DNA from: an uncultured bacterium
GTDB taxonomy: Bacteria; Omnitrophota; Omnitrophia; Omnitrophales; Aquincolibacteriaceae
Length of the DNA stretch: 64,000 nucleotides
NCBI GenBank assembly: GCA_964511315.1
Contig: CAZEFF010000002.1
Location: 2,230 to 66,229, forward strand
Direction: 5' to 3'
The notes under the pieces were generated by a model. It was not told the origin of the DNA and did not search any database. It saw only the letters and a list, made by a program, of their open reading frames with translations. Numbering within the stretch: position 1 is the stretch's first letter; each line of letters opens with the position of its first letter. Of this stretch, positions 7,382 through 36,992 are shown one piece after another. A program made the position numbers and the translations under genes.

Positions 7382-10300
7382 ATGAGTTTTAAAAAGAGTC
7401 ATCACCGCGCTTGGCGAAAGCGCCTAGCCCTCTTTATTACCATCATTTTTACCGCGCAAAGCCTAGGCTTAGCGCCTCATAACCTCTGCGCTCGAATGGA
7501 GGCAGAGGATATCCCTTTACCTATTTCTGAACCCTCGGCAATTCAGATTCCCCCGGAATTTGGACGCATCGATGAAGTGTTCTCTGGAAGCAATAAAAAA
7601 TTAATTATTCTTATTCAGGATGCTCACAGTATTCCAGAAGCGCAGCGCAGCATCCAAAAAACCATAAGCCATCTCAGTAAAACATACGCGCTTAGCGGCA
7701 TCGCACTTGAAGGAGCATCCGGCCCTCTTGACCCCGTCATGCTGCGAAATTATCCCGATCGGGAAAAGCTTTCCGATGTACTTGCTGAGCTTACGCGCAA
7801 AGGGGAGCTAAGCGGTTCCGTAGCCGCGCTCATTGAGGACGGAATCAAGACACCCGCCTTTGGCCTTGAAAATTGGGAGACATACCTTGAAGGCTTGAAT
7901 CTCTATCGTGAAGCTCTGACCCGTCAAGAAAGGGCGGCACGCAAAATCCACGTCTTGCAAAAACGTCTCGCCCGGGAAAAATCTGCCGCCTACTCAAAAA
8001 AGCTTCTGGCTGCGGATGATATTCGGAACCGTGTCGAGAGTAATGAGGTTGATTTTCTTCACGCACTGCTCGAAATTTCAAAAATCAGCGCCGTTCCCGA
8101 AAACACGCCGCTAAGTCTCATCTTAAATCAGCTCAACCGGGGCCCGGCGGCATCGCAAACTTCGAGAAATCTTGAAAATCTATTTGGAGAGCTGGCTTCT
8201 TATTTTACTCAGAAAAAAAATTCCGAGGCTTTATCGTCGCTGGCGGAAAAACGTCAGAGCTATCAAAGCAGTGAGCTTGATCTCTACGCATTCGCCTCCT
8301 ATTTGCGTCATCTCGCTGTTTCCGAATCCATCCCGACAATTTCCTTAACACCGGATGTTATCGAGCTTGCTGAAGTTTATGACAAACTGAATCAAATAAA
8401 AGGGTCAGCGGTCTACGCGGAATTTGAAACTCATCTTAACCGCACGATCCACGGCCTTATTCAAACCAGCAAACAAAATGAACTGAACCGTCAATCAGAA
8501 ATACTTCGCTTCGAAAATAAGCTCAACCAGCTCCGGCTAACACGCTCAGAACTCAAGCAGCTTGAGACATCTTCATCGGATATAAATAACCGCGGTGCGT
8601 ATCCATCCTTAAACCTTGAGCTAGCGGCTCATTCAGCATTCTATCGGAATACCCTCAAACGGGATCATGAGCTGTATGAAAACTTTAAAAAAATGGCATC
8701 GGAGAAAAATACGCCATCGGCATGGATTATTGTCGCAGGGGGATTTCACAGCGCTGGACTCCTTGAACAGGCGCGTAAGGACGGATTCTCCTTTGTTAAA
8801 ATCTTGCCGGCAATTCGAAGCCTCCCCGAACATGATTTCTACACGGATCACATGGAAGGAAAAGTCAGCTGGGTAAATCAAGAAAGCTTGGATTCAGGCC
8901 GCGGCCTTTATGAAATCTTCTTAACTTTTGCCATGTCGGCTCTTTTTAAGGATTCATCAGAAAATGAAGCTGCATCAGCCTTGCGCGTCTGGCGTCAAAA
9001 TATTATACGAGACCTATCTGAAATAAAGCGTTTAAACGAATCTTCATCTTACACAAAAATAATTGACGCTGAGTTAACAGCGCGGAAATCCGCGTTCTTA
9101 AAGAGAAACTGGATCTCAAATATTAACCGTTTTACTTCGCAGATGGACGAATTAGAAAAATCGGCCCGCCTAAACAAACAGAATGTTTTGGATATTTTAA
9201 AAACACCCGCGATTCCGGCTCTCTTAACAGGCCCAGGGGTCTTGACTCGAAAGGGAATTCCCGCATCAAGGAGCAGGTCAGAAGCGCGCACCGCGGCTTG
9301 GCGCGAGTCTGATGAGCCGCTCAGCCGTAAAGACGTCATATTCGCTATGGGGGAAGATTTTACCGTTCACCTTCCAACAGGGCAAACCTATAAGCTCCCG
9401 AAAGGCCTCTGGGGAAAATACTTCTCTCGGCAGCCCGCTCAGCAGGAAATACGGGAAGTTTTGCCGCCAAAAAGTTCTGAGCCCATCATTCTTATTGAGA
9501 TCACAGTGCCTAAAGCGGAAAGCGATGAGCTGACTGCCGAACTTAAAATTCTCGGGGATGCTGTCACTGAACTTTTCCCCGGCTATAAATACGCTTTCCT
9601 GCCTCCGGAAACAGCCGGAACATCTCAAACGCAGTTTTTAAAATTTTACAAATTTGATATTCTGACCGGAGACACGGCGGCACCGCCGGTGATTCTCGAA
9701 AATGCTCCGAGTATTATCACTGCATCCGCAGGCAATAGCACCAAACCCGCCGGCCCAAATGAAAATCCAATCCTAAACCGCCGAAATTTCTTAACCTTTA
9801 TCAGTCTAAGCGTGATTGGGTCAATCGCCGCATTCACGTTCTGGCCTCGGACAAAGAAGCCTTTGGCTGTACAGCCTGAAACCGTTTCTAAAATTAACCC
9901 GGCAGGAAAAAAACTCGATGAAATCGATTCAGGTGATAGGGAAGCGGTCAAAATTCACTTATCCGGAATTGGCAATTATTTGAGAGAAGGCGGCATTCAT
10001 CCCGCGACCGGCATTGCCCGTGATCACGTTCAAATTGACCGGCTTTCGGGAAAAATTTCGGGAACACCCGCCAATTATTCTTCCCCGTCAAAACTATCAG
10101 TTTATTTACCCTTTTTACTCAAAATTATTCAAGGCGAAGATGTCTTAGCGCTTACAGGAATTTCAAAACGGGAAGCTGTCGAACTTCTTTCAAAATCACT
10201 TTTTTCACTCCGCCGCTTCCAAGTCGAAGGTTCGGGCAGTCACGAAGTTCAGTCGGGATTATTTCCCTGGTTTGAAATGAAAGACGATGGATCCCTTTCG

Positions 10301-13300
10301 CTTGTCCGATATTCCGGCAAGGCAACAATCCCGATCCTTGATAATGGCCAGCTTTCATTCGCGCTCGCGGCCATCGCGGGCGGACTATGGGATTCAAGAG
10401 ATCCTGAACTCATTGAAATTCAAAAAACCGCCCGGGATATTCTTGATCACCAGCATTATGAGGAAATGGTTAACCCCGCGACCGGATTGCTGTTTGAAGA
10501 ATGGGATCTGGAAGGCATGAGGGGAATTGAAAAACCAGGACACGCGAATCTTTGGACCGAATGGATGCTTGCGGTTTATTGGGCTCATTTAAACGGACAT
10601 ATCACTAACGACGCTTGGCTGCGGTTTAATCATGAAATCTATTTTCAGCAGGCAGAAAATAAAGAAATTCCGATGCCCCAAGGATATATTTTTTCGTTTC
10701 ACGAAACCGGATGGCCGCTCCTGTATATACCGGCGATGAAATCAGACCTCGCGAACCTTTATTACAATTATCTTTGGCTTCACGCGAAGCATGCCCGGCA
10801 AAATGGTCTTCCGGGATTTGTCGGCACGGAATACTCTCCCGCGGGGCAATATGCCCAGGCCGGCATTGATATTACAAAGTACGGCAACGGCGTTGTGCTC
10901 GGGCGGATTGATGATTCGTCCTTAAGCGCCCCGTACGCGACAGCATTCGCGGCGCTTATCTATCCTTCCGTGGGATTCAAATGGTCCAATCGTTTGCTGT
11001 CACAAAAGGGCGTTGTCGACAAATACGGGCCCGTGACCTCTTATAAGGTGGATGAAGGGGCATCGCACATTCATACTGCCGACACGACTTTCGCAACCGC
11101 GCTCGCTTTAAGCGGCGGGGTATCCAGAGAAGTCGAAGTTTATTTCAATCGCGCCCGCGGATTATCCGAAAATGATTTGCTCGCGCCCTTCAATCAGCAA
11201 GCCGCGCAAATTCAAAACACATCAAATATTTCGAAATTTGAAACGGTGTCAGGCATACCCCTGCCTCCAAAAAATCTCGGCGCGGTGAAAAAGCCGAAAA
11301 ATATGAAATTGGAAGGTAAAACGGTATCTCTTTTCTCGAAACTCCAAACGGGTCATTGGCACGGAGAAAACGTGAGCGTTCCGGAGGCTTATTGGGATGA
11401 AAAAATGGACAGCACGCAGTCATGGATTTTTCATAAAGGTGAAATCATCGCGGACTACCAGGTAGGCGCAACCATGAAAGATTATGCCTGGCTCGGCACG
11501 CCCGTAGATCCCGTACCGATTGCCGGAGCAAAATATCTTTCGTTTTGGATTCCCGCCGATTTAAAAGAGTACTGGGAAATTGAGCTCAAGCACATCGATC
11601 AGCAGCTTACGTCTTCAAAAATCATCGTGAACACACAGGATACTGCGGTAACTTATGAAACCTCGAAGGATGGAAAATGGCGCCGCCTGCTTATCCCAAT
11701 TAAGCCGTCACCGCATACCGAGTCTGAAACACTTAATTATCTGGCGGTTTCAATTCCAAGCCCATTAACCTCTCCCTCAAAGCGGGAGGGCGCCATCCGG
11801 ATCAAAAATATACAAATCCATTCTGAAAAACCCACGCATGAAAAAGAGTCATTTTCTAAATCCGTTTCATCCGAGGCCGCCTCAGAAGATGGTTCGGTAG
11901 GAAAAAAACCGACCCATGAAACAAAAATTTCGGAACCTTTCTTTTTACTTCTCCGGAAAGAAAAAAGGAACCTTACCAACGGCGACTTACAAAACATCAT
12001 TTTCCCAAGCGGGGTACTGCGCATCGAGCCGCGCGGTCACTGGGCCGGAGAATCGATAAGACTAAGCCCCAATGTCTCCGATTTACGCTACATCTATATG
12101 CGGGTAAGGGCGCCTAATGGAAAAGCCGTTTTTAAAATTGAAATCCCCAATTTAGTACCTATCAAAAAAGAAATACGGATCAATTCAAAAAATTGGCAAA
12201 CGCTTGAAATCGCGCTGGATCAGCCTTTCGCGGCGAAAGATCTGACTTACTTCGCGGTTTCTGACGCGACCGATGTGATAGAGCTGGCTGATTTCCAATT
12301 ATCCGCGAAGGCTATTCCAGGCGCAGAATTATTCGCCTCAACCGATTACTCACCGTCATATTCAGGAATTTACGCGTATGCTTCGAATACTGCCGGCGCT
12401 CATTCCGCTCAAAAAATCGCCGCCGGAGAACTTAACCGTTTAGCGTCACCGCTACCGCTTTCAAATATCCTCCTCGCGAAAGCAGGCCGGTCCGAACTCC
12501 GCACTTCACCTTATTCCGCGAATGTTCTGGCAATCCGGGATTATTTAGTCACCAAAAACGGCAGTACCCAAACAAATCCGGTCGCGGACGCTCTGAAAAA
12601 CGCGATTCATTTGGGGCTTGGCGCGTTTTCAAAAGAAATCGAAACCCTCGTGACCCAGCTGCATAGAGAAAACCGCGCTCACGGAGCTCTCGCAAAACTC
12701 CTGAGCGACCTGATGTCGGAAGATGAAACGACTCTGCGCCAAATTATCGCCTTTGAGCGGATTCTTGATGATAAGCGCGCTTCTGAGCCTTTATCAAGCG
12801 CGGAAGAATGGTCGTGGAAAATTATTAAAAGCCGGGGGATCGGCGATATTTTTTTCGCGAGTCCGGAAGCAGCACCGTTTCTTTCCATGGCAGGCGGAAT
12901 GGCTCCGGCCGTATGGGGACAAGCCAAACTGCTTGCTGATACCGGCGTCAGCGTCTCAATCGTTTCGTTTCTTTATGATCAGGATCAAAACAAAAAACAT
13001 AAATCCGCCCAAGAGCTCATCACAAGCGGCGTCCGTCACGATGGAAAAAAATACGCCTTAAAGAAACTTGAAATGTCACTGCGAATTCCAATTGGGCCAG
13101 TGGTCGAGGAAGCCTTCGGCCACCGGCAAGTCATCGCGGGGCCTCAATCGATACGCGCGGATGTCTATACTTTTGAAGCGGAGGGCGTCCGCTTTTATCT
13201 GCTGCATGAGCCTGAATTGGGAAACAAACTTTATCCTCCCAGCGACTCCATTGACAGCTTTAAGCGTACAATTTTTCTTTCCCGGGGAACACTTGAAGTC

Positions 13301-16300
13301 ATAAAGAATCTCGATGAATTCCCTGATTTCATTGTCTCTCACGATTGGATGGCTTCGTTAATTCCCGCTTATCTAAAAACAACTCTCGCAGGAGTAAACT
13401 CTCTCAGCCATATTCCCGCCGCAAAAAACTATTCCTCGGATGAACATTTCAAAAGCACCAAACCGCTGATGTTTTTACACAACACCTTAAGAGACTACCA
13501 GGCCGCTTTTTACAACAATATGGAAACCGATAAATTTGACCGCAAACGCCGTATTGAACTTTTCCCGCTGTCAGGCCTAGGCGACGAGCATTTCTTTGGA
13601 TTTCAGGATTCGGGCGATGGATCACGCATCAATCTTGCAAAAGCCGGTGCTTTTCATGCCGCGGGAGTATGGCACCCAAGCCTTAAGCACGGAAATGAAT
13701 TACTCGTCCCCGAAACAGGGGAAACGCTTGAATCACTTATGCGTTCGAAAATGCCTTATAATTTCGGCATCAGCAACGCGGTCAATCTTCCCGATATTTG
13801 GTCGGAAATCGATCATATCGGAAAAGACCTGCTCAAATGGGCCCGCGAAAATTCAATCCCGGCTTCAGCGTTAGGATTTTCTGAAGAAATTGAGAACGCT
13901 GCCACCGCGCCATTTACAAAAGATAATTTTAAAAAAGCCCTTCCTTTTTACCGCGCACTTTCAAAACGCTATTTACAGCGCCAGCAAGGGATGAAAGAAG
14001 ATTCGCATGTCATCCTTTCAGGTTTTGTCGGACGCGTCGCGAAGCAAAAGGGAGTCGCGCTCATCCGGGATGCCTTGGTCAGCTATCTTGATCAAACCGC
14101 GGATCAAAACACTCAGCTTTTTATCGGCGGACCAGTAGCCCAAGGAGACAGAGACGCGGAAACGTTTGAAGCGCTTGTCAAAGAACTCGCGGATAATCCA
14201 AAGTACCGCGGCAGGATCGGAGTCAAAGCAGGCGCCAAAGAATTTTTAGATAAAAGAGAAGTCGTGCTTTCATTCTTGGCCATGGACATTTTTCTTATGC
14301 CCTCCGAAAGAGAACCTGGCGGCATCACACAAATTGAAGCATTGGCCATCGGGGTTGCGTTTATCGTCGCTCATTTTATCGGCGGTATCGCGGACACAGT
14401 TACACAATACAACCCCGCGGAAAAGAAGGGGAACGGCTTTTTCTTTCAGCATTTCAGCCGGGATGAATATTTGCGGGCCTGGATCGAAGCCACCGCGACA
14501 ATACATAACCACCCTGATATTGCTGCCAAAAATATTATCGAAAATGCCTTTGAAGCCGCTTTTGACTGGAGCCGTCAAACACCGCTTTACTTGACCATGC
14601 TCAGGTACGTCGCGGGCGGTTGGGTCGAAGGCGATCCGCAAGCCGAGAATGAGATCAAACTGCTGTCTCGAATTTTGGTGGGTAATCCTAAAATTCGTCC
14701 TATTTTAAAAGGCCCAGGACATTCCCTGCAAATCATTGATTCCGAATTCAAAAACCATCCGATTGTGGCCGACCTTTTTGACGGACGGAAAATTGATATT
14801 CAGCTTTTGCCCAATGACATCCCAAGTGGAAATTTTTCCTATGATTTGGCCAACCGCGTATCCTCCTGGAGCAGCGTTAAAAAATCCGATATCAACTTTT
14901 CCGGACCTCCCATTAATTTTCCGTGGGAATCCTATGAACAAACCCTCAAGAAAGAACCCACTCACATCACATTTTCTTACCACAATCTGTACTTCAATGA
15001 CGGGTTTGTCGCCTTCCGGAATCCAAAAGGACTCTACTTTCGGAGAGATGAACCTTTCCGCCGGCGGACATACAGCATGTTTGTTGTCTGGAATAATGGC
15101 GAAGCCACAGCGGAAAAAATTCGCTTCACAAAAAAAGACGGGCAAACACGCGGCAAAGTCCGAGTCGTACGCGCTCAGGCGATTAATCAAAACGTGGATC
15201 TCGGCCCAAAAATAAAATTTGCCATTTTTGGACAGCAGATCATTTCAGAAGGAAAAGCCGTAAAAATTCAGGACCTCGCGCATCAATTTCCCGATATTTT
15301 TCATCTTTATCAGCTTCCTCAATTTCCGCCGGCAGCCGCCAGTGATAAATACGGTCCCGCTATCGGGATCCGTGAACTTTTGAGCGGCCCCACACACGCG
15401 ATTGAGGCATCTGACCGGCCCGTGCTTTTGGAAACTCTGAAAAACGGCGGCCTATCCGAATTTAATCTGCAGCCTTATTTAGGAATGGGCTATTCAATAC
15501 AGGACATCCGGGAAAAGGCTCTCGCTCCGCGGGGCTACAAAGAAGTCTCGGCAGCCATTCCCGGAAATCAACTTGCCGCGGGGGAGTATTTCATTCAGGA
15601 CCGCACTCTTCACATCCGTCTGAAACCGGCGCTTTATCCGCATAACCTAATCGGCATTACCGAAGATGGAAAAGTTGTATCGCTCGTGCTGACCGGGGAT
15701 AAAACCATTGGCGAGGGCTATGCTGTTTCCGATATCGCGAGTCTGGTGAACGATAAATTGAGCCATTTAAAAATCCGCGATCTTTTCCTCCTTGCCAATA
15801 GCGGTGACGCGTTTCGCCGAAAAAATGGAGCGTTTACCCATACGAGCGGCCCAGCTCCTTATACTGCGGGCACCGCCATGATCAGCTTTGCACTTAGCAC
15901 CCCTCGTTCAGAGATCCGTAAAGCCCCGGCAGACCAATCCAATCTCCGCCGCGCGGTAAAAATTACAGCACTCGCGCTGGCTCCTGATGAAATTTTGGGC
16001 GGACACTTTCAGCGGCCTCAAAAAAATGAAATCCAATTTGCGATCCAAGAAATCACCAAACTCCCGCTGTCATCAACGCCGAAATTGCACGATGCGCTTA
16101 TTCATTACAGCTCGTTCGTTTTAAATCAAGAGACAGGCAGCTGGCTTGAAAAACAGCTGCCCATGGACAGCGTCAATACTCCTTTCATTAGTCCCGCGGC
16201 AAGACGCTTAGCCATGACAAAACTACCCAAGACAATCGCAGGAGAAGGTCTTATCTTAGATGAATCATTCGTACTGAAAGGCGGGCTTGCGTTTATTCCG

Positions 16301-16669
16301 ACATTGTTTTTAGATCAGCCGGTTGTTATTCTTACACAAAATAAAGAAATCGAAGCTGAGGTGCAGCGTTTCAATGAAAGGTATCATTTAGCCGTTCCAA
16401 CCGTAAAGACTGTTCCTGATGCCATTATTGCGGTTTCAAAAACTTCGCTCAATAAAAGCAGTCTTACCGCATCAAAACTTGTTCCGCGCGCCTTACTTGG
16501 ACAGGATTACAATTGGAGTATTCGGTCCGCCCTGATTAAGCAATTAGGGGATCAGCAAGTTTCGATTCTCTCAAGTTCCATGGTTGAGTGGATGGCCCAG
16601 ACAGCCGGTGTTTCAGAACTCTTAAGTCAGCTTGCTGAAACCTACTCCCGTATCGCCAAGTCCGCGTAA
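7382..16669 (+). CDS. giant (3095 aa) multidomain protein: signal peptide, TraB/GumN-like region, internal TM helix, DUF3131-like (alpha/alpha)6 glycoside-hydrolase-like domain, beta-rich region, glycogen/starch-synthase-like GT5 glycosyltransferase domain, uncharacterized C-terminal ~650 aa
   Basis: A single uninterrupted ORF. The N-terminus has a signal peptide (RLALFITIIFTAQSLGLA). TraB/GumN-type motifs are present (LIILIQDAHS ... WIIVAGGFHSAGLL). An internal hydrophobic helix follows an RR motif (NRRNFLTFISLSVIGSIAAFTFW), about nt 9778-9846. The GT5-like domain shows EAAPFLSMAGGMAPAVWG near its start, and later FLMPSEREPGGITQIEALAIGVAFIVAHFIGGIADTV (FLMPSE..PGG matches the glycogen-synthase E-x7-E region). 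Confidence 0.6.
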   Translation: MSFKKSHHRAWRKRLALFITIIFTAQSLGLAPHNLCARMEAEDIPLPISEPSAIQIPPEFGRIDEVFSGSNKKLIILIQDAHSIPEAQRSIQKTISHLSKTYALSGIALEGASGPLDPVMLRNYPDREKLSDVLAELTRKGELSGSVAALIEDGIKTPAFGLENWETYLEGLNLYREALTRQERAARKIHVLQKRLAREKSAAYSKKLLAADDIRNRVESNEVDFLHALLEISKISAVPENTPLSLILNQLNRGPAASQTSRNLENLFGELASYFTQKKNSEALSSLAEKRQSYQSSELDLYAFASYLRHLAVSESIPTISLTPDVIELAEVYDKLNQIKGSAVYAEFETHLNRTIHGLIQTSKQNELNRQSEILRFENKLNQLRLTRSELKQLETSSSDINNRGAYPSLNLELAAHSAFYRNTLKRDHELYENFKKMASEKNTPSAWIIVAGGFHSAGLLEQARKDGFSFVKILPAIRSLPEHDFYTDHMEGKVSWVNQESLDSGRGLYEIFLTFAMSALFKDSSENEAASALRVWRQNIIRDLSEIKRLNESSSYTKIIDAELTARKSAFLKRNWISNINRFTSQMDELEKSARLNKQNVLDILKTPAIPALLTGPGVLTRKGIPASRSRSEARTAAWRESDEPLSRKDVIFAMGEDFTVHLPTGQTYKLPKGLWGKYFSRQPAQQEIREVLPPKSSEPIILIEITVPKAESDELTAELKILGDAVTELFPGYKYAFLPPETAGTSQTQFLKFYKFDILTGDTAAPPVILENAPSIITASAGNSTKPAGPNENPILNRRNFLTFISLSVIGSIAAFTFWPRTKKPLAVQPETVSKINPAGKKLDEIDSGDREAVKIHLSGIGNYLREGGIHPATGIARDHVQIDRLSGKISGTPANYSSPSKLSVYLPFLLKIIQGEDVLALTGISKREAVELLSKSLFSLRRFQVEGSGSHEVQSGLFPWFEMKDDGSLSLVRYSGKATIPILDNGQLSFALAAIAGGLWDSRDPELIEIQKTARDILDHQHYEEMVNPATGLLFEEWDLEGMRGIEKPGHANLWTEWMLAVYWAHLNGHITNDAWLRFNHEIYFQQAENKEIPMPQGYIFSFHETGWPLLYIPAMKSDLANLYYNYLWLHAKHARQNGLPGFVGTEYSPAGQYAQAGIDITKYGNGVVLGRIDDSSLSAPYATAFAALIYPSVGFKWSNRLLSQKGVVDKYGPVTSYKVDEGASHIHTADTTFATALALSGGVSREVEVYFNRARGLSENDLLAPFNQQAAQIQNTSNISKFETVSGIPLPPKNLGAVKKPKNMKLEGKTVSLFSKLQTGHWHGENVSVPEAYWDEKMDSTQSWIFHKGEIIADYQVGATMKDYAWLGTPVDPVPIAGAKYLSFWIPADLKEYWEIELKHIDQQLTSSKIIVNTQDTAVTYETSKDGKWRRLLIPIKPSPHTESETLNYLAVSIPSPLTSPSKREGAIRIKNIQIHSEKPTHEKESFSKSVSSEAASEDGSVGKKPTHETKISEPFFLLLRKEKRNLTNGDLQNIIFPSGVLRIEPRGHWAGESIRLSPNVSDLRYIYMRVRAPNGKAVFKIEIPNLVPIKKEIRINSKNWQTLEIALDQPFAAKDLTYFAVSDATDVIELADFQLSAKAIPGAELFASTDYSPSYSGIYAYASNTAGAHSAQKIAAGELNRLASPLPLSNILLAKAGRSELRTSPYSANVLAIRDYLVTKNGSTQTNPVADALKNAIHLGLGAFSKEIETLVTQLHRENRAHGALAKLLSDLMSEDETTLRQIIAFERILDDKRASEPLSSAEEWSWKIIKSRGIGDIFFASPEAAPFLSMAGGMAPAVWGQAKLLADTGVSVSIVSFLYDQDQNKKHKSAQELITSGVRHDGKKYALKKLEMSLRIPIGPVVEEAFGHRQVIAGPQSIRADVYTFEAEGVRFYLLHEPELGNKLYPPSDSIDSFKRTIFLSRGTLEVIKNLDEFPDFIVSHDWMASLIPAYLKTTLAGVNSLSHIPAAKNYSSDEHFKSTKPLMFLHNTLRDYQAAFYNNMETDKFDRKRRIELFPLSGLGDEHFFGFQDSGDGSRINLAKAGAFHAAGVWHPSLKHGNELLVPETGETLESLMRSKMPYNFGISNAVNLPDIWSEIDHIGKDLLKWARENSIPASALGFSEEIENAATAPFTKDNFKKALPFYRALSKRYLQRQQGMKEDSHVILSGFVGRVAKQKGVALIRDALVSYLDQTADQNTQLFIGGPVAQGDRDAETFEALVKELADNPKYRGRIGVKAGAKEFLDKREVVLSFLAMDIFLMPSEREPGGITQIEALAIGVAFIVAHFIGGIADTVTQYNPAEKKGNGFFFQHFSRDEYLRAWIEATATIHNHPDIAAKNIIENAFEAAFDWSRQTPLYLTMLRYVAGGWVEGDPQAENEIKLLSRILVGNPKIRPILKGPGHSLQIIDSEFKNHPIVADLFDGRKIDIQLLPNDIPSGNFSYDLANRVSSWSSVKKSDINFSGPPINFPWESYEQTLKKEPTHITFSYHNLYFNDGFVAFRNPKGLYFRRDEPFRRRTYSMFVVWNNGEATAEKIRFTKKDGQTRGKVRVVRAQAINQNVDLGPKIKFAIFGQQIISEGKAVKIQDLAHQFPDIFHLYQLPQFPPAAASDKYGPAIGIRELLSGPTHAIEASDRPVLLETLKNGGLSEFNLQPYLGMGYSIQDIREKALAPRGYKEVSAAIPGNQLAAGEYFIQDRTLHIRLKPALYPHNLIGITEDGKVVSLVLTGDKTIGEGYAVSDIASLVNDKLSHLKIRDLFLLANSGDAFRRKNGAFTHTSGPAPYTAGTAMISFALSTPRSEIRKAPADQSNLRRAVKITALALAPDEILGGHFQRPQKNEIQFAIQEITKLPLSSTPKLHDALIHYSSFVLNQETGSWLEKQLPMDSVNTPFISPAARRLAMTKLPKTIAGEGLILDESFVLKGGLAFIPTLFLDQPVVILTQNKEIEAEVQRFNERYHLAVPTVKTVPDAIIAVSKTSLNKSSLTASKLVPRALLGQDYNWSIRSALIKQLGDQQVSILSSSMVEWMAQTAGVSELLSQLAETYSRIAKSA

Positions 16670-22662: not shown

Positions 22663-23261
22663 AAAAAGCCGTGAGGAAAGCTCAAATTAAACGGACCACC
22701 GCTGAAACCGATATCAAGCTCGCGCTCAATATTGACGGTTCCGGAAAATCGCGCATCCATACCGGCATGCCTTTTCTTGATCATATGCTGACCCTGCTTG
22801 CCAAACACGGCCTCATGGATCTTGACGTCAAAGCCAAAGGCGATTTACATGTCGATATCCACCACACCAATGAAGACGTGGGCATTGTTCTCGGGCAAGC
22901 TTTTCGCAAAGCGCTCGGCTCAAAAGCCGGGATTCGCCGCTACGGCTGCTTTGCCGTACCCATGGATGAAGTGCTCGCGCGGGTAACGCTCGATATTTCG
23001 GGCCGTCCCTCTGTTTTTGTTCACCAGGCCAAAGGCGTCAAACATTCCCGTCTCGAAAATTATTCTTTTCACGACTCCGTCGAATTTCTGCGCTCCTTCT
23101 GCCTTCATGCCGGCATCAATATGCATGTGGAAGTTTTAACGGGCCACGATGCCCACCATATCATTGAGGGCGTATTTAAGGCTGTCGCTAAAGCGCTCGA
23201 TATGGCCACAACCATTGATCCGCGCGTCAAAGGCATTCCTTCAACTAAAGGCAGTTTATAA
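22659..23261 (+). CDS. hisB: imidazoleglycerol-phosphate dehydratase
   Basis: 200 aa monofunctional IGPD with HHxxE metal motifs (IHHTNEDVGI, GHDAHHIIEG). Confidence 0.9.
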   Translation: MKKAVRKAQIKRTTAETDIKLALNIDGSGKSRIHTGMPFLDHMLTLLAKHGLMDLDVKAKGDLHVDIHHTNEDVGIVLGQAFRKALGSKAGIRRYGCFAVPMDEVLARVTLDISGRPSVFVHQAKGVKHSRLENYSFHDSVEFLRSFCLHAGINMHVEVLTGHDAHHIIEGVFKAVAKALDMATTIDPRVKGIPSTKGSL

Positions 23262-23332
23262 GAAGTAAGCGTTAAGCGATAAGTATCTGCTTTTTCACTT
23301 ACTACTTAAAACTTAACGCTTAGCGCTTTTAT

Positions 23333-25072: not shown

Positions 25073-25831
25073 ATGCTCACCAAAAGAATCATCCCTTGTC
25101 TCGACGTCAAAGACGGACGCGTGGTTAAAGGCGTTCAGTTTGTCGATCTTCGTGACGCCGGCGATCCGGTGCAATGCGCCATCGCTTACGACAAAGCCAA
25201 AGCGGATGAACTTATTTTTCTCGATATCACTGCCTCTCACGAAAAACGCCAAACCATGATCGAAGTCGCTAACAAAGTCGCTGAATCGGTGTATATTCCT
25301 TTTACTGTGGGCGGGGGAATTAATGAGGTCAGCGATATCCGCGAACTCCTCAAGGCCGGCTGCGACAAAGTTTCTATCAACACAAGCGCGATCAAAAATC
25401 CCGATTTCATCAAACAGGCCAGCACAAAATTTGGAAGTCAATGCATTGTGGTCGCCATTGACGCCCGCAAAAAGTCTGACGGCAAATGGGAAGTGTTTAC
25501 TCACGGCGGACGCAATCCCACAGGGCTTGACGCGGTTGAGTGGGCCAAAAAAGCGGAATCATTCGGCGCCGGAGAAATTCTTCTGACCAGCATGGATAAA
25601 GACGGCACCAAATCCGGCTATGATCTTGAACTCACGCGCCTCATTTCGCGCACCTTGAAAATTCCGGTCATTGCTTCAGGCGGTGTGGGAACCATGGAAC
25701 ATATCTATGAAGGATTCTCAAAAGGGGAAGCCGATGCCTGTCTCGCCGCCTCGATTTTCCATTTTGGAGAATTCACCATCCCTGAAGTAAAGCGCTTCCT
25801 TTCTCAAAAAAATATCCCCGTCCGTTTATAA
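25073..25831 (+). CDS. hisF: imidazole glycerol phosphate synthase cyclase subunit
   Basis: 252 aa HisF ([16 protein letters not shown] ... SGGVG). Confidence 0.9.
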
Positions 25832-26111
25832 ATTTTTTTTCGCGCGGGTCCTGCCGCGAGAATCCCCAGGTCTTCCTCAAATTTTTCCGGGTCCTGTCAG
25901 CAAGGTTTCCGCAGGGACTCCTCAAAATACTTTTCTTATGAAGCAGTCATTCTTCCTTATCTTTTTTCGTCCAGAAAGTTAACTCTCATCCAATTCTCAC
26001 AGCATGCGGCTTTAAGAAAAGTATTTTTCCTCTCCCTTTACGGAACCTCGCTGCCACCCGCAAAACACTCCTAACTAAAAATGTTAGCCCCCTTACTTTC
26101 AAGAGCGAAGC

Positions 26112-26242
26112 ATCATACTTGCCTGAGAGAAGCTCCCGCAATCCTTTGAAGCTTGGTTTCCCATCAGGGAATTCAAAGGATGAGGGGCAGCGGGCAGCCG
26201 CCGCTGGAGCGGCTGAACCGCGATTCTCGGGGCAAGTATGAT
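26112..26242 (+). ncRNA. candidate structured RNA / conserved palindromic element, copy A (upstream of hisI)
   Basis: A 12-bp closing helix (ATCATACTTGCC / GGCAAGTATGAT) encloses conserved blocks CCTG..GAAGCT..CTCCCG.AA.C, TGAGGGGCAG, a hairpin loop CGCTGGA and CC.CGAT. Three internal helices co-vary with copy B at 33998-34153. Strand of any transcript unknown. Confidence 0.5.
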
Positions 26243-26259
26243 CGCGAGTGTGTATCTAG

Positions 26260-26288
26260 TTGACACACTTTAAGAATACAGGCATACT
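26260..26288 (+). promoter_or_regulatory. sigma70-like promoter upstream of hisI-trp cluster (TTGACA-17-CATACT)
   Basis: -35 TTGACA at 26260-26265 and -10 CATACT at 26283-26288, about 35 nt upstream of the hisI ATG. The -35 is embedded in an inverted repeat AGTGTGT..ACACACT (26247-26269). Confidence 0.4.
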
Positions 26289-26323
26289 GTTTTAATTCAC
26301 ATAACTACTGATAGGAGCTACAA

Positions 26324-26704
26324 ATGCACGATTTTAAATACAATGCCGAAGGCTTAATTCCCGCCATTATTCAGGATGCGGACAGCGGTGAAGTCCTCAT
26401 GCTGGCTTATATGGATAAAATCGCTTTAGAACGCACGTTGAGCGAAAAAAAGACCGTCTTTTATTCCCGGTCACGGAACAAATACTGGGTGAAAGGCGAA
26501 ACCTCAGGACATACCCAGGACGTCCAAGGCAAAGCCCTTACTGATTGCGACCGTGACACCATCCTCATCAAAGTCAAACAGCATGGGGGCGCTTGTCACG
26601 AAGGTTACCGCAGCTGTTTCGTTAATGAACTTGATGACAAAGGAAATATTGTCCGTGTCACTCAGGAAAAAGTTTTTGATCCGGACGCGACTTACAAAAA
26701 ATAA
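26324..26704 (+). CDS. hisI: phosphoribosyl-AMP cyclohydrolase
   Basis: 126 aa; HisI motifs (GLIPAIIQD, metal-binding CDRD..C..HGG.CH). Confidence 0.85.
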
Positions 26705-28166: not shown

Positions 28167-28231
28167 CGTATATCGTCTTTCGAATTTCGTACTTCGAAAA
28201 GTTCTTTCAGGCTTTCGATGTTCGATATACG
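28167..28231. repeat. imperfect 65-nt palindrome in trpE-trpG spacer
   Basis: CGTATATCG ... CGATATACG outer arms around two TTCGAA palindromes. Confidence 0.4.
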
Positions 28232-32462: not shown

Positions 32463-33836
32463 ATGTCATCGCTTTATTCGAGCATCCTCATTGTTGACGA
32501 TGAAAAAAATACACGGGAAGGTCTGAAAACTTTTCTGGAAGGCCTCGATTATGATGTCATGACAGCCGCCAGCGGTGAAGAAGGACTCAAAACTTACCTC
32601 GCCGAAAAACCGGATTTAGTTCTCACCGATATCCGGATGCCCGGAATGGATGGAACGGTGCTCTTAGAAAAAATTCTTGCCGCGAATCCAAGCGCCACCG
32701 TGGTCATGCTGACGGCTTATGGGTCGGTTGAAGATGCCGTCAAAGCCATGAAAAAAGGCGCGTTTTATTACCTGACGAAACCGGTCAATCTTGAAGAACT
32801 CGAATTTCTCGTCAAAAAAGCTATCGCGAGCAAAAGCATTCAGGATGAAAACAAAGAATTAAAGCAGGCGCTTTTCAAAGCCAAATTTGAAAAGGGCACT
32901 ATTTTGGGCGACTCTCAGCAGATGAAAGAACTTTTGCGTACCGTTGATAAAATCGCCGAGACCAACTCCACGGTTTTAATTGAAGGGGAAAGCGGCACGG
33001 GCAAAGAGCTCATTGCTCACCGCATCCATGAAATCAGCCCCCGCCGTCATCTGCCGTTTGTGGCGGTTCATTGCGCCGCTTTGACGGATACCCTTCTTTC
33101 AAGCGAACTTTTCGGTCATGAACGGGGAGCTTTCACGGGAGCCACCGAAAGAAAAATAGGACGCTTTGAACGCGCCCATACCGGAACCCTTTTTCTTGAT
33201 GAAATCGGAGAAATTTCTCAGGATACCCAGGTCAAACTTCTCCGTGTGCTTCAGGAAGGGGAATTTGAACGTGTGGGAGGCACCAAAACCATCAAGGTCG
33301 ATGTGAGACTTGTTTGCGCCACCAATAAAAATTTAATCGATGAAGTCCGTAAAGGAAAATTCCGCGAAGACCTTTATTACCGCATCAATGTCATTTATTT
33401 GAAAGTTCCGCCTCTACGTGAGCGGAAAGATGACATCCCGACACTGGTCGATTCTTTCATCAAGGCCTACAATCAGTCGAACAATAAGAAAATTACGGGG
33501 ATTGATACCGATGCCTTAGACGCGCTGAAGAATTATCCCTGGCCCGGAAATATCCGTGAACTCAAAAATATTGTGGAACGCATGGTCGTGCTGAGCGCTG
33601 ACCCCAAACTCCATTTAACCAATGTGCCTGAAGATATCCGTAACTACATCCATACCGCCAATGCCCAACAGGTCCTCTCCAATGTTCAGGCCGCGAATGG
33701 TTCGCTTTCCGATATGGAAAAGGAACTCATCAAAAAAACCATTGAAGAAGTGAAGGGAAATAAATCTCTCGCCGCCAAAAAACTCGGCATCTCACGCCGA
33801 ACTCTCTACCGCAAAATCGAAGACTACAACATCTAA
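32463..33836 (+). CDS. sigma54-dependent response regulator (NtrC family: REC + AAA+ sigma54-interaction + Fis-type HTH)
   Basis: REC domain (DDE...D...K); Walker A GESGTGKE; GAFTGA sigma54-contact motif; C-terminal HTH AAKKLGISRRTLYRKI. Confidence 0.9.
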   Translation: MSSLYSSILIVDDEKNTREGLKTFLEGLDYDVMTAASGEEGLKTYLAEKPDLVLTDIRMPGMDGTVLLEKILAANPSATVVMLTAYGSVEDAVKAMKKGAFYYLTKPVNLEELEFLVKKAIASKSIQDENKELKQALFKAKFEKGTILGDSQQMKELLRTVDKIAETNSTVLIEGESGTGKELIAHRIHEISPRRHLPFVAVHCAALTDTLLSSELFGHERGAFTGATERKIGRFERAHTGTLFLDEIGEISQDTQVKLLRVLQEGEFERVGGTKTIKVDVRLVCATNKNLIDEVRKGKFREDLYYRINVIYLKVPPLRERKDDIPTLVDSFIKAYNQSNNKKITGIDTDALDALKNYPWPGNIRELKNIVERMVVLSADPKLHLTNVPEDIRNYIHTANAQQVLSNVQAANGSLSDMEKELIKKTIEEVKGNKSLAAKKLGISRRTLYRKIEDYNI

Positions 33837-33847
33837 TTCTACTAAGC

Positions 33848-33985
33848 CGCGTGCTAAGTATTGCCGCCGGCATCGTTCAGCCCCAAATCAAATCCGGTTT
33901 GAGGGGGCTTCACTCGGCATTCGCTCGACTTCGCCATTCCATTGCGAAGTCGGCTCATGACGTGCCTCTGGCAATACCCAGCACG
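33848..33985. repeat. nested inverted-repeat element C upstream of dnaK
   Basis: 17-bp imperfect outer inverted repeat (GCGTGCTAAGTATTGCC / GGCAATACCCAGCACGC) enclosing a perfect 9-bp inverted repeat (CGACTTCGC..GCGAAGTCG) and AGCCCC..GGGGCT. Confidence 0.4.
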
Positions 33986-33997
33986 CATCTTAAAAAT

Positions 33998-34153
33998 CCG
34001 TAATTGTGAAAACCTGCCTGAAGCTAGCTCCCGGAACTCGTTGAAGATTGGTGCCCGCGTTTTTTGCGGGATTCAACGAGTGAGGGGCAGAGGTTGCTCC
34101 TCGCTGGAAGGAGCAAACCTCGATAGCGGAAGGCAGGTTTCAAAAATTACGGG
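33998..34153 (+). ncRNA. candidate structured RNA / conserved palindromic element, copy B (upstream of dnaK)
   Basis: 21-nt closing helix with an internal loop (CCGTAATTGTGAAAACCTGCC / GGCAGGTTTCAAAAATTACGG); the same conserved blocks and CGCTGGA hairpin loop as copy A, with compensatory changes in helices. Confidence 0.5.
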
Positions 34154-34296
34154 CGGATAAGGCGAGCTAATAGGTTACAGATGGACTGATACATTTCGGC
34201 ACACTCGACAGAGATGTCCCTATCGGGCTAAAAGGGAGGAAATCCGCAACCTATTACCATCTCTTCACTTACAACTATTCACTTTTCACTCATTTA

Positions 34297-34312
34297 TGGC
34301 ATGCCAATTGTA
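34297..34312 (+). promoter_or_regulatory. sigma54-like (-24/-12) promoter candidate upstream of dnaK
   Basis: TGGCAT-N5-TTGTA versus consensus TGGCAC-N5-TTGCA, with correct GG/-12 spacing; about 50 nt upstream of the dnaK ATG; lies next to an NtrC-type activator gene. Confidence 0.4.
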
Positions 34313-34362
34313 CTTATATAGAAGAGAATCGGTATCATAAAATTCACCAAAGGAGAACTAAA

Positions 34363-36282
34363 ATGGCAAAAGTACTTGGAATCGATTTAGGAACCACCAA
34401 TTCGTGCATGGCGATCATGGAAGGCTCAGACCCCAAGGTCATCGCGAATAAAGAAGGAAACCGCACCACACCTTCCGTTGTGGGATTCACCAAAACCAGC
34501 GAACGGATCGTGGGACAAGCGGCAAAAAGACAAGCGGTAACCAATCCGGAAAATACTGTTTTCAGTGCCAAGCGTTTTATCGGCAGACGGTATGAAGAAG
34601 TTACAAGTGAAGCGAAACTTGTTCCATTCAAAGTCAAAGCGGGCAAACATGGAGAAGCGGTGATTCACGTCTCTAATGATACCCGTGACTACACTCCGCC
34701 CGAAATTTCGGCGATGGTTCTGCAAAAAATGAAAGCGGACGCTGAAGCTTATCTTGGCGAAAAAATTACGCAGGCGGTCATCACGGTGCCTGCTTATTTC
34801 AATGACTCTCAGCGTCAAGCCACCAAAGATGCCGGGCAAATTGCCGGCCTCGAAGTCTTACGCATTATCAATGAACCGACAGCGGCAGCACTCGCGTACG
34901 GTCTTGATAAAAAGAAAGATGAAACCATCGCGGTCTATGACCTCGGAGGCGGAACGTTTGACGTTTCGATTCTTGAAATCGGCGAAGGCGTTTTTGAAGT
35001 CAAAGCCACGAATGGTGACACGCATTTGGGCGGTGATGACTTTGACCAAAAGATCATCGAATGGCTTGTCGCTGAATTCAAAAAGACTGACGGCATTGAT
35101 CTTTCGAAAGACAAGATGGCCCTTCAGCGTTTGAAAGAAGCCGCTGAAAAAGCCAAATGCGAACTTTCCACATCGCAAACATCAGAAATCAATCTGCCTT
35201 TCATTACGGCAGACGCTTCGGGTCCCAAACATCTTTTACTCAGCCTCACACGGGCGAAACTCGAACAGCTTGTGTCCGATTTGATTGAAAGAACCTTGGC
35301 TCCTTGCGTCAACGCCATGAAAGACGCCGGCGTAACAGCGGCTGATATCGATGAAGTTGTTTTGGTCGGCGGTCAGACCCGTATGCCGGCTGTGGTTGAA
35401 AAAGTAAAAAAGATTTTCGGCAAAGATCCTCATCAGGGCGTGAACCCCGATGAAGTCGTGGCCATTGGCGCTGCCATCCAAGGCGGAGTCTTGAAAGGCG
35501 ATGTGAAAGACATTCTGCTTCTTGATGTCACACCGCTTTCTCTCGGCATCGAAACTTTGGGCGGGGTGATGACCAAGCTCATTGAACGCAACACGACGAT
35601 CCCGACGAAAAAATCCGAAATCTTCTCAACAGCGGCCGACAATCAAACCGCTGTAACTGTGAAGGTTCTTCAAGGAGAGCGTCAGCTTGCCAACGACAAC
35701 CGGGTGCTCGGAATTTTTAACCTGGAAGGCATTCCAGCGGCTCCCCGAGGAGTTCCGCAAGTCGAGGTCACGTTTGATATCGATGCGAACGGAATTGTGC
35801 ATGTGTCCGCCAAAGATTTGGGTACGGGCAAGGAACAAAAAATCCGTATCGAGTCTTCGTCAGGCCTCAACAAGGATGAAGTCGAGAAGCTTGTGAAAGA
35901 AGCTCAGGCTCATGCGGATGAAGATAAAAAGCGCCACGAATTCATCACGCAAAAGAACCAGCTCGACAACCTGGTCTACCAGACAGAAAAAAGTCTAAAG
36001 GATCTCGGCGAGAAAATCACCGCTGAAGAAAAGACCAAGGTGGAAGAAGCGCTGAAAGAAGCCAAAGACGCGCTTGCCACCGAGGATGTCGAGAAGATCA
36101 AAGCGGCTTCTGAGAAACTCACCACAGCGTCTCATGCCATCGCTCAGAAAATCTATGAGGAAGCCGCCAAGAAACAGCAGGCTGCCGGCGGCGGTGCCAA
36201 GGGCGCTAAGGCTGAAGGCAAAGAAGACATCAAAGAAGCCGACTATGAAGTTGTCGATGAAGATAAGAATGAGAAGAAATAA
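34363..36282 (+). CDS. dnaK: molecular chaperone DnaK (Hsp70)
   Basis: 639 aa; canonical Hsp70 signatures ([27 protein letters not shown]) and an acidic C-terminal EEVD-like tail. Confidence 0.95.
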
Positions 36283-36894: not shown

Positions 36895-36923
36895 TCTTGG
36901 TTCACCGTTTCAAAGAATCACCC

Positions 36924-36952
36924 AGGCCGGGGCTAAAACCCCGGCCTTTTTT
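36924..36952 (+). terminator. rho-independent terminator
   Basis: AGGCCGGGG-CTAAAA-CCCCGGCCT stem-loop followed by T6. Confidence 0.7.
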
Positions 36953-36992
36953 ATGCTTTTAGACATCTCCATCTAAGGTTAAAATACACCTC

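Follow-up and report, generated by a model that had tools for sequence, protein, structure and literature searches.

Nested palindromes upstream of dnaK in an uncultured Omnitrophales bacterium as possible members of a family of inserted, selectively maintained structured elements

In the genome of an uncultured bacterium of the phylum Omnitrophota (order Omnitrophales, family Aquincolibacteriaceae; assembly GCA_964511315.1), the spacer between a gene for an NtrC-type response regulator and sigma-54 activator and the HSP70 gene dnaK contains two adjoining nested palindromes, here called C and B, which together occupy positions 33843-34152. All positions refer to the window, the 64,000-nt stretch of contig CAZEFF010000002.1 (2,230 to 66,229, forward strand) that was analysed. 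The setting raises the question of whether these palindromes are control sites of dnaK or something else. A preliminary description of the DNA had treated them as two different elements at a place expected for enhancer (upstream activating sequence) sites, for a 5' leader or for a small RNA. Our analysis favours another reading, in which C and B, together with a paralogue, A, in the his operon, are structured elements that were acquired by insertion and are selectively maintained, probably acting as RNA and not as sites for a regulator; we give this reading a probability of roughly one half.

The nested inverted repeats are real, and their folding is far more stable than chance. The outer inverted repeat of C, earlier given as 17 nt with three mismatches, has that length and two mismatches (GCGTGCTAAGTATTGCC 33849-33865 / GGCAATACCCAGCACGC 33970-33986; chance expectation 0.06 matches per window), and it widens to 30-nt arms (33843-33872 / 33963-33992) with 77% complementarity. 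Inside it, a perfect 9-bp repeat (CGACTTCGC 33926-33934 / GCGAAGTCG 33944-33952, with a loop of 9 nt) and the pair AGCCCC 33879-33884 / GGGGCT 33904-33909 were found where they had been reported. The outer arms of B are 29 nt long (33998-34026 / 34124-34152) and 79% complementary, and enclose perfect repeats of 10 and 8 bp. Compared with dinucleotide shuffles, the minimum free energy (MFE) had z-scores on the plus and minus strands of -7.1 and -7.9 for C, -8.7 and -10.2 for B, and -8.8 and -10.5 for C and B together. The flanks also agreed with the preliminary description, with the sigma-54 activator gene upstream, the HSP70 gene downstream and a sigma-54-like promoter before the latter (Table 1). 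No tRNA or tmRNA gene was found. Within 33600-34500, neither a sigma-70-like promoter nor, on either strand, an intrinsic terminator (a G+C-rich stem-loop followed by a U run) was detected; a canonical terminator nearby, at 36907-36964, shows that the organism does use intrinsic terminators. A 72-codon open reading frame (ORF) across C and B (33942-34160) was considered as a gene and rejected, having no Pfam match and spanning sequence with no counterpart in relatives.

A low-stringency search of the window with B as query located element A between hisF and hisI. A and B have the same three-way-junction fold: in a hand-checked structure all 33 pairs are standard in both, with 13 of the 33 changed on both sides between the two elements and none changed on one side only. 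Shifting the 3' partners by 1-3 columns as a control reduced pairing to 32-49% and double changes to 0-3, and RNAalifold, run on A and B, predicted 36 pairs, 14 of them compensatory (both sides changed). Eight blocks are identical in the two elements (UGCCUGA, AGCUCCCG, UUGAAG, UUGGU, UGAGGGGCAG, CGCUGGA, AACC and CGAU), and between them the sequence differs while complementarity is retained; the copies are about 60-77% identical. None of the junction and loop bases differ.

The fold is closed by stem P1, of 15 bp in A and 20 bp in B (15-21 bp in the family), in which the innermost UGCC...GGCA alone is common to the copies. Above P1, a small purine-rich internal loop (NGA / G-rich) is followed by P2 (4-5 bp) and the three-way junction. 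One branch of the junction runs through P3 (GC-U-CCC / GGGGC, with a bulged U) and a G(N)A/GA loop into the long hairpin P4, which bears the UUGGU internal loop and, at its tip, a further hairpin; the other is hairpin P5 with its CGCUGGA loop, from which the strand returns to P2 via (C)GA. A and B were used to build a covariance model, R1, and R2 is a wider model; the R1 scores of both elements are included in Table 1. Two likenesses to known motifs were considered and rejected. A resembles a TPP riboswitch in the bases CUGAGA and CCUUUGAA, which B lacks, and Rfam returned no TPP match; a kink-turn at the G(N)A/GA loop was ruled out by eye, the bulged strand having no GA, as required, after the 3-nt bulge.

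Evidence on the origin and constraint of A came from its orthologous site in related genomes, designated here by locus number. The hisF-hisI spacer measures 492 nt in the window and 503 nt in L015, a strain (SRR21621037) with a 98% identical HisI, and 89-178 nt in L016, L018, L003 and L004. At the same site A is present in L015 and missing from L016 (HisI 92% identical), L018 (HisI 87%), L003 and L004, all four of which keep the hisI promoter, TTGACACAC-N17-CATACT. Since L015 carries A and L016 does not, A was gained after the split from the latter lineage. The two copies differ at 3 of 140 bases, all of them unpaired (in the internal loop of P4, the loop of P4b and a bulge of P1). Between the same two strains, coding DNA is 89% identical, 91 of 214 fourfold degenerate sites differ (42.5%) and the neighbouring proteins differ at 12 of 511 residues. 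Divergence around A amounts to 13% in the adjacent promoter and leader, 24% in the 48 nt upstream and 60% of columns in region D, a hairpin further upstream, and the probability of three or fewer differences in A at the coding rate is 8e-5. The comparison shows that, since its gain, A has been conserved to about the same degree as the neighbouring proteins are in amino-acid sequence, evidently under strong purifying selection.

The sigma-70-type promoter that follows A (26260-26288; TTGACA, 17 nt, CATACT) is conserved in the window, L015, L016, L018, L003 and L004, so hisI and the trp genes may be transcribed separately from the his genes upstream. Region D is not a family member; its arms, about 50 nt long, include a perfect inverted repeat of 15 nt (25924-25938 / 26013-26027), and its MFE is -77.0 kcal/mol on the minus strand against -54.4 kcal/mol on the plus strand. 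In L015 largely unrelated sequence stands in its place (1276-1450 of that locus), with conserved flanks on both sides. A further locus, L021, starts 118 nt upstream of hisI and has unrelated sequence there.

C and B were examined in the same way. Among the best matches of the NtrC-type protein, all from Omnitrophota metagenome-assembled genomes (MAGs), one was 92% identical (L002, a short contig) and the others at most 73%. The gene order his-trp-histidine kinase-NtrC-dnaK is kept in L003, L004/L005, L011 and L012/L013, and NtrC and dnaK are also adjacent in L014. Neither C nor B occurs in the NtrC-dnaK spacers of L003, L004, L011, L012 and L014, nor in the 76 nt after the NtrC stop codon in L002, where an unrelated hairpin directly follows that codon; other, unrelated palindromes take the position of C and B in L003 and L014. 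The spacer is 526 nt long in the window, 198-208 nt in L004, L011 and L012, 313 nt in L003 and 356 nt in L014. The promoter module downstream of B has the length of the whole spacer in the compact relatives, and C and B therefore amount to roughly 310 nt of added sequence, lying about a dozen bases or less from the NtrC stop codon. From these comparisons, the elements are shown to be recent acquisitions by insertion, made shortly beyond stop codons and ahead of the promoter of the following gene, in the lineage that includes this genome and its nearest known relative. The best DnaK match (P0121, in L020) was tried as a route to the spacer of the closest strain and abandoned, being an internally duplicated DnaK on an unrelated contig. 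This fragment (L020 2825-3995), labelled Vicinamibacterales, has an internal duplication of about 120 residues that is probably an assembly artefact and inflates its score.

The first description of C and B as elements of different kinds is probably not correct, for C read on the minus strand fits the fold of B. The third-best R1 match in the window is the minus strand of C (33859-33975, 13 bits, E=0.15). This strand has in common with A and B the UUGCC-NGA segment, a 4-bp P2, a P3 of 2+3 bp with a bulged U, the G..A before a long P4, the GA after P4, a second hairpin, GAA-CGA, the P2 partner and the G-rich bases before GGCAA. In 450 kb comprising the window and relatives (both strands), an architecture descriptor matched A, its orthologue in L015, B and the minus strand of C and nothing else, and it gave 0 matches in 20 shuffles; it was written after C had been seen. 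In a model-fitted alignment of the same four sequences, pairing is complete (125 of 125 lettered cells), with double changes at 23 of 33 pairs. Two A.C mismatches in the outer stem of C on the plus strand become G.U pairs on the minus strand, the MFE being -76.8 (minus) against -67.0 (plus). Missing from the minus strand of C are P4b, the basal part of P5, the loops specific to A and B and several bases invariant in both. As a plain sequence relative of A and B, C was rejected, as global alignment scored at the level of shuffles (z about 0) and the match is one of architecture only. Overall, C is likely, but not proven, to be an inverted and simplified family member, in which case the spacer would hold two members head to head.

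Searches for further members added none. The window scan yielded no copies beyond A, B and C in 64 kb; R1 and R2, run on at least 88 kb of syntenic DNA of relatives, found no member, their best matches being coding-region noise; and BLAST of C, B, D and a further query, E, against all retrieved loci gave nothing beyond the L015 orthologue. A pattern of the bases conserved between A and B matched a genome collection once, by chance, within a histidine-kinase gene of an Erythrobacteraceae MAG. Two conserved-base patterns had no match in a metagenome collection, and in a viral collection the five matches to a conserved-base pattern all fell in G+C-rich phage sequence at noise-level model score. 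Plasmid and phage searches gave no match. Rfam 15 had no match in the whole window at the gathering threshold and none at E up to 10 over 33700-34400; over 25800-26400 it gave two weak matches (E 3.3 and 6.2), far below the gathering score and outside A. The family is known from two strains of one uncultured lineage.

On this evidence A, B and C could well be members of an undescribed family of structured elements of 120-155 nt with the fold P1-P2-[P3-P4]-[P5]. Compensatory changes and constraint above the neutral level, the general marks of structured RNA, are both present. The small RNA of the preliminary description survives as a probable structured RNA by virtue of the 13 compensated pairs between A and B and the 98% conservation of A in L015, and a functional RNA-type element is more likely than a set of regulator binding sites. 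Most of the probability that we assign to this reading belongs to the claim of a selected structured element that is not a regulator site.

How such elements might act can be outlined as follows. A and B would fold as RNA made by read-through of the upstream gene, ntrC for B and hisF for A; this is the simplest source because both elements are without expression signals of their own, point in the same direction as the flanking genes and lie between a stop codon and the next promoter. The long P1 stem could then mark a transcript boundary, as a block to 3' exonucleases and/or a site of double-strand processing that releases the junction core, and the invariant junction bases might be recognised by a protein or, possibly, make up a catalytic core. 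Taken alone, a boundary or processing function is perhaps possible, at odds clearly below even. Still more tentative is the proposal that A, B and C form a new class of compact three-way-junction RNA that spreads by intergenic insertion in an Omnitrophota lineage and is then selected for its activity, either as a self-cleaving or processing-directed RNA severing read-through transcripts where operons meet, or as a module that binds a specific protein or ligand and is set free when its long closing stem is cut.

Several observations weigh against this interpretation. The family consists of three paralogues and one orthologue, with no orthologue of B or C among the retrieved loci, and the near-identity of A in two strains may also stem from gene conversion by other genomic copies, the window covering 64 kb. 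The model score of C is weak (13 bits, compared with 14.5 bits for a chance coding-region match in L011), and its membership also depends on a descriptor devised post hoc and on a model-fitted alignment. Very few G.U pairs and similar z-scores on both strands also leave the strand assignment of the elements tentative. If it acts on the minus strand, C is antisense to every neighbouring gene, and read-through from an upstream gene cannot then make it. Finally, simple hairpins suffice for a boundary function, which thus does not explain the conserved junction.

The misfit of C with read-through keeps alive two rivals. The first holds that the elements are selfish miniature mobile DNA, akin to miniature inverted-repeat transposable elements (MITEs) or repetitive extragenic palindromic (REP) sequences, whose inverted termini and internal hairpins serve a transposase or a single-strand DNA intermediate, with RNA folding as a by-product and without host function. 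We regard it as unlikely on balance but serious. Presence/absence polymorphism among relatives with clean empty sites, as expected of MITEs, speaks for it, as do copies in both orientations, side by side and in unrelated intergenic sites just after stop codons, and the different palindromes that other lineages bear at the same spots (L003, L014, L002 and L016/L018). A is also flanked by GAGCG and GAGTG, a possible 5-bp duplication, with a single GAGCG at the empty site of L016; neither B nor C has a comparable or convincing target-site duplication. The terminal inverted repeats common to the copies of a MITE are missing: each copy has an outer stem sequence of its own, wholly different save for UGCC/GGCA, with ends CCGTAATT...AATTACGG in B, GCATCATAC...GTATGATCGC in A and GCGTGCTAAG...CCCAGCACGC in C. 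No transposase, integrase or reverse transcriptase was seen among the scanned proteins of the window, a core chromosomal region (fabF, recA, his, trp, dnaK and others, and ten further ones including four checked on the minus strand). The copies have diverged widely, yet every stem change is compensated, and neutral decay does not predict a fixed copy as conserved as A where fourfold sites differ to the extent seen here.

The second rival, which we consider rather improbable, takes the elements as independent genes for small RNAs that act in trans or bind proteins, the stem sequences differing from one paralogue to the next, as in tRNA-like or decoy RNA families. It agrees with paralogues that differ while the orthologue is nearly identical, with the conservation of loops and junctions and with the tolerance of either orientation. 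Against it, no promoter-like or terminator-like signal accompanies the elements, and with C and B head to head and 5 nt apart each promoter would lie inside the other element; moreover, the family was found neither in the 88 kb of syntenic relative DNA nor in the collections scanned by pattern.

The multi-stem junction, its about 20 invariant, unpaired, purine-rich bases and the freely covarying stems would suit a self-cleaving ribozyme of a new class, one by which read-through transcripts are cleaved between operons. Several bacterial ribozyme classes are intergenic, multi-copy and found in either orientation, as the elements are here. With no ribozyme model of Rfam matching at E values as high as 10, and with several of the bases invariant in A and B missing from C, this explanation has only a small chance of being right.

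The least probable explanation gives C and B a regulatory role at dnaK, as enhancer sites of the neighbouring NtrC-type activator, as a dnaK leader or as an HrcA-type operator. Their many inverted repeats and their place between a sigma-54 activator gene and a sigma-54 promoter had made it attractive. For activator sites and leader alike it is nearly excluded: no orthologous spacer contains C or B, while all retain the promoter and the TTACA motifs, which in the window follow B; the upstream distance to the promoter is about 300 nt from the start of B and about 455 nt from that of C; and the paralogue A lies in the his operon beside a sigma-70-type promoter. Lack of conservation of the spacer in relatives, which the preliminary description had listed among the observations that would refute its proposal, is what the comparison shows for C and B. 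Both elements lie upstream of the conserved promoter, with its predicted start, and so neither is a leader. The preliminary description had itself dismissed a likeness to CIRCE, rightly so: the whole window contains no CIRCE (TTAGCACTC-N9-GAGTGCTAA) at up to 3 mismatches, and the GTGCTAA of C is part of the 17-bp stem, whose arms are about 104 nt apart.

The likely control sites of dnaK lie elsewhere. A sigma-54 promoter, TGGCATG-N4-TTG, stands 55-76 nt 5' of the dnaK ATG in six of six Omnitrophota genomes (the window, L003, L004, L011, L012 and L014). The six also have in common, 26-42 nt before the promoter, a TTACA/TTGCA motif and, more distally, one of the GT[TCG]ACAG type; the two span -26 to about -135 of the promoter, in the window entirely downstream of B. 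The repeat TAATAGGTTACAGAT/ATCCGCAACCTATTA and the proximal motif CACTTACAAC resemble motifs of relatives at matching distances from the promoter, such as AATAGTTTACAATAT in L011 and AATAAGTTACAATAT in L014. With the tempting enhancer reading of the palindromes removed, sites of the TAATAGGTTACAGAT/ATCCGCAACCTATTA type, within 150 nt downstream of B, are the likelier enhancer candidates for the NtrC-type regulator. Because a sigma-54-type promoter and an adjacent histidine kinase and NtrC-type activator occur in all six genomes, these data suggest that dnaK may be under two-component and sigma-54 control rather than that of sigma-32 or HrcA. A literature search returned no description of sigma-54 control of dnaK or of Omnitrophota structured repeats.

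Table 1 Features of the NtrC-dnaK and hisF-hisI spacers in the window.
Feature	Position	Strand	Remarks
NtrC-type gene (response regulator / sigma-54 activator)	32463-33836		Response_reg, Sigma54_activat and HTH_8 domains
Element C	33843-33992	minus (tentative)	nested palindrome: outer stem and two inner hairpins (33879-33909, 33926-33952); likely simplified family member
Spacer AAAAT	33993-33997		5 nt, separates C and B, which stand head to head
Element B	33998-34152	plus	full member of the proposed family; R1 149 bits
B helix P1	33998-34019 / 34131-34152	plus	
B helix P2	34023-34026 / 34124-34127	plus	
B helix P3	34027-34032 / 34084-34088	plus	bulged U
B helix P4	34036-34045 / 34072-34081	plus	bears hairpin P4b, 34054-34070
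B hairpin P5	34090-34102 / 34107-34121	plus	loop CGCUGGA
Conserved dnaK control region	34153-34362	plus	not part of the elements; includes the ribosome-binding site; matches in length the entire NtrC-dnaK spacer in L004, L011 and L012 (about 200 nt)
Inverted repeat in control region, TAATAGGTTACAGAT / ATCCGCAACCTATTA	34168-34182 / 34242-34256		
Proximal TTACA motif, CACTTACAAC	34266-34275		
Predicted sigma-54 promoter, TGGCATGCCAATTG	34297-34310	plus	
dnaK (HSP70)	34363-36282		downstream of C and B
Element A	26107-26246	plus	between hisF (stop at 25831) and the hisI promoter (TTGACA 26260-26265, CATACT 26283-26288); R1 137 bits
Region D	25881-26058	minus	long imperfect hairpin upstream of A; not a family member

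Other hairpins were noticed in the window and in relatives. Long hairpins at 23257-23331 and 28167-28231 fill the spacers after a gene ending at 23261 (72 nt) and after trpE (95 nt), where the corresponding neighbouring genes of relatives are 0-9 nt apart; this genome has gained hairpin insertions in its his and trp operons. A different nested hairpin of about 90 nt is conserved between L016 (4859-4959) and L018 (1449-1554), with an outer stem GTCATTGCGAG / CTCGCAATGAC and an inner one CGAAGCAATCTG / CAGATTGCTTCG; it lies between a glutamine-amidotransferase gene and the next His_biosynth gene, the counterparts of which overlap in the window. L003 has a perfect palindrome, TTAATTGGTGACTGTCACCAATTAA, at 3871-3895 and 11480-11504, in its hisF-hisI and NtrC-dnaK spacers. 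Since the same pair of spacers houses A and C+B in the window, the repeat family found at these sites differs from one lineage to another. Elsewhere in the window, a single ORF of 3095 codons spans 7382-16669, and at 63500-64000 a plus-strand frame running off the window end has a very long low-complexity tail rich in Gln, Asn and Asp, with irregular repeats in 9-15-nt steps.

Should the family indeed prove to be a functional RNA, it would add a new class of structured RNAs, one that comes from a phylum without cultured model organisms. It joins insertion in the manner of a mobile repeat with tight conservation of a fixed copy, properties that are usually separate, and would, if the interpretation is true, offer a tractable case of intergenic repeats becoming host functions.

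Among known systems, the structured MITEs (Correia of Neisseria, enterobacterial ERIC, bcr1 of Bacillus cereus and pneumococcal RUP/BOX) are the first comparison. These are intergenic elements of 100-160 nt bounded by inverted repeats, found in either orientation, often just after genes and polymorphic in presence; they fold as RNA on read-through, and their long stems can be substrates of double-strand RNases. A, B and C are alike in length, insertion, orientation and RNA folding. Copies of structured MITEs normally cluster around a single consensus, with conservation of their terminal repeats and with target duplications, whereas the termini of A, B and C differ and their divergence is high but compensated; here, moreover, the unpaired junction bases are the conserved part and the fixed copy is under strong purifying selection. 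REP sequences, with the bacterial interspersed mosaic elements (BIMEs) and REPINs built on them and the RAYT transposases, are extragenic palindromes after stop codons, often in inverted pairs, for which mRNA 3' protection and separation of transcription units have been proposed. The inverted pair C(-)/B(+) and the position after stop codons recall them. REPs are 20-40 nt long and highly repeated with a conserved head, unlike three-way junctions of 120-155 nt present three times in 64 kb, and no RAYT gene was seen among the window proteins scanned.

Integron attC sites, of 60-140 nt, combine a conserved fold with variable sequence and are in this respect, and in length, comparable to A, B and C. 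The latter lack attC core sites (RYYYAAC / GTTRRRY) at their ends, have no cassette array or integrase nearby and conserve internal junction bases, which is not an attC feature. With Rfam-type structured RNA motifs, riboswitches and small ribozymes, the elements have in common a multi-helix junction, invariant loop bases, compensation and conservation in an orthologue; they differ in having no Rfam match, in lying upstream of promoters and not in a 5' untranslated region, and in one copy being inverted relative to its neighbours. As we read these comparisons, the elements would resemble structured MITEs and REP-type repeats in their pattern of appearance, and curated RNA motifs in the way they vary.

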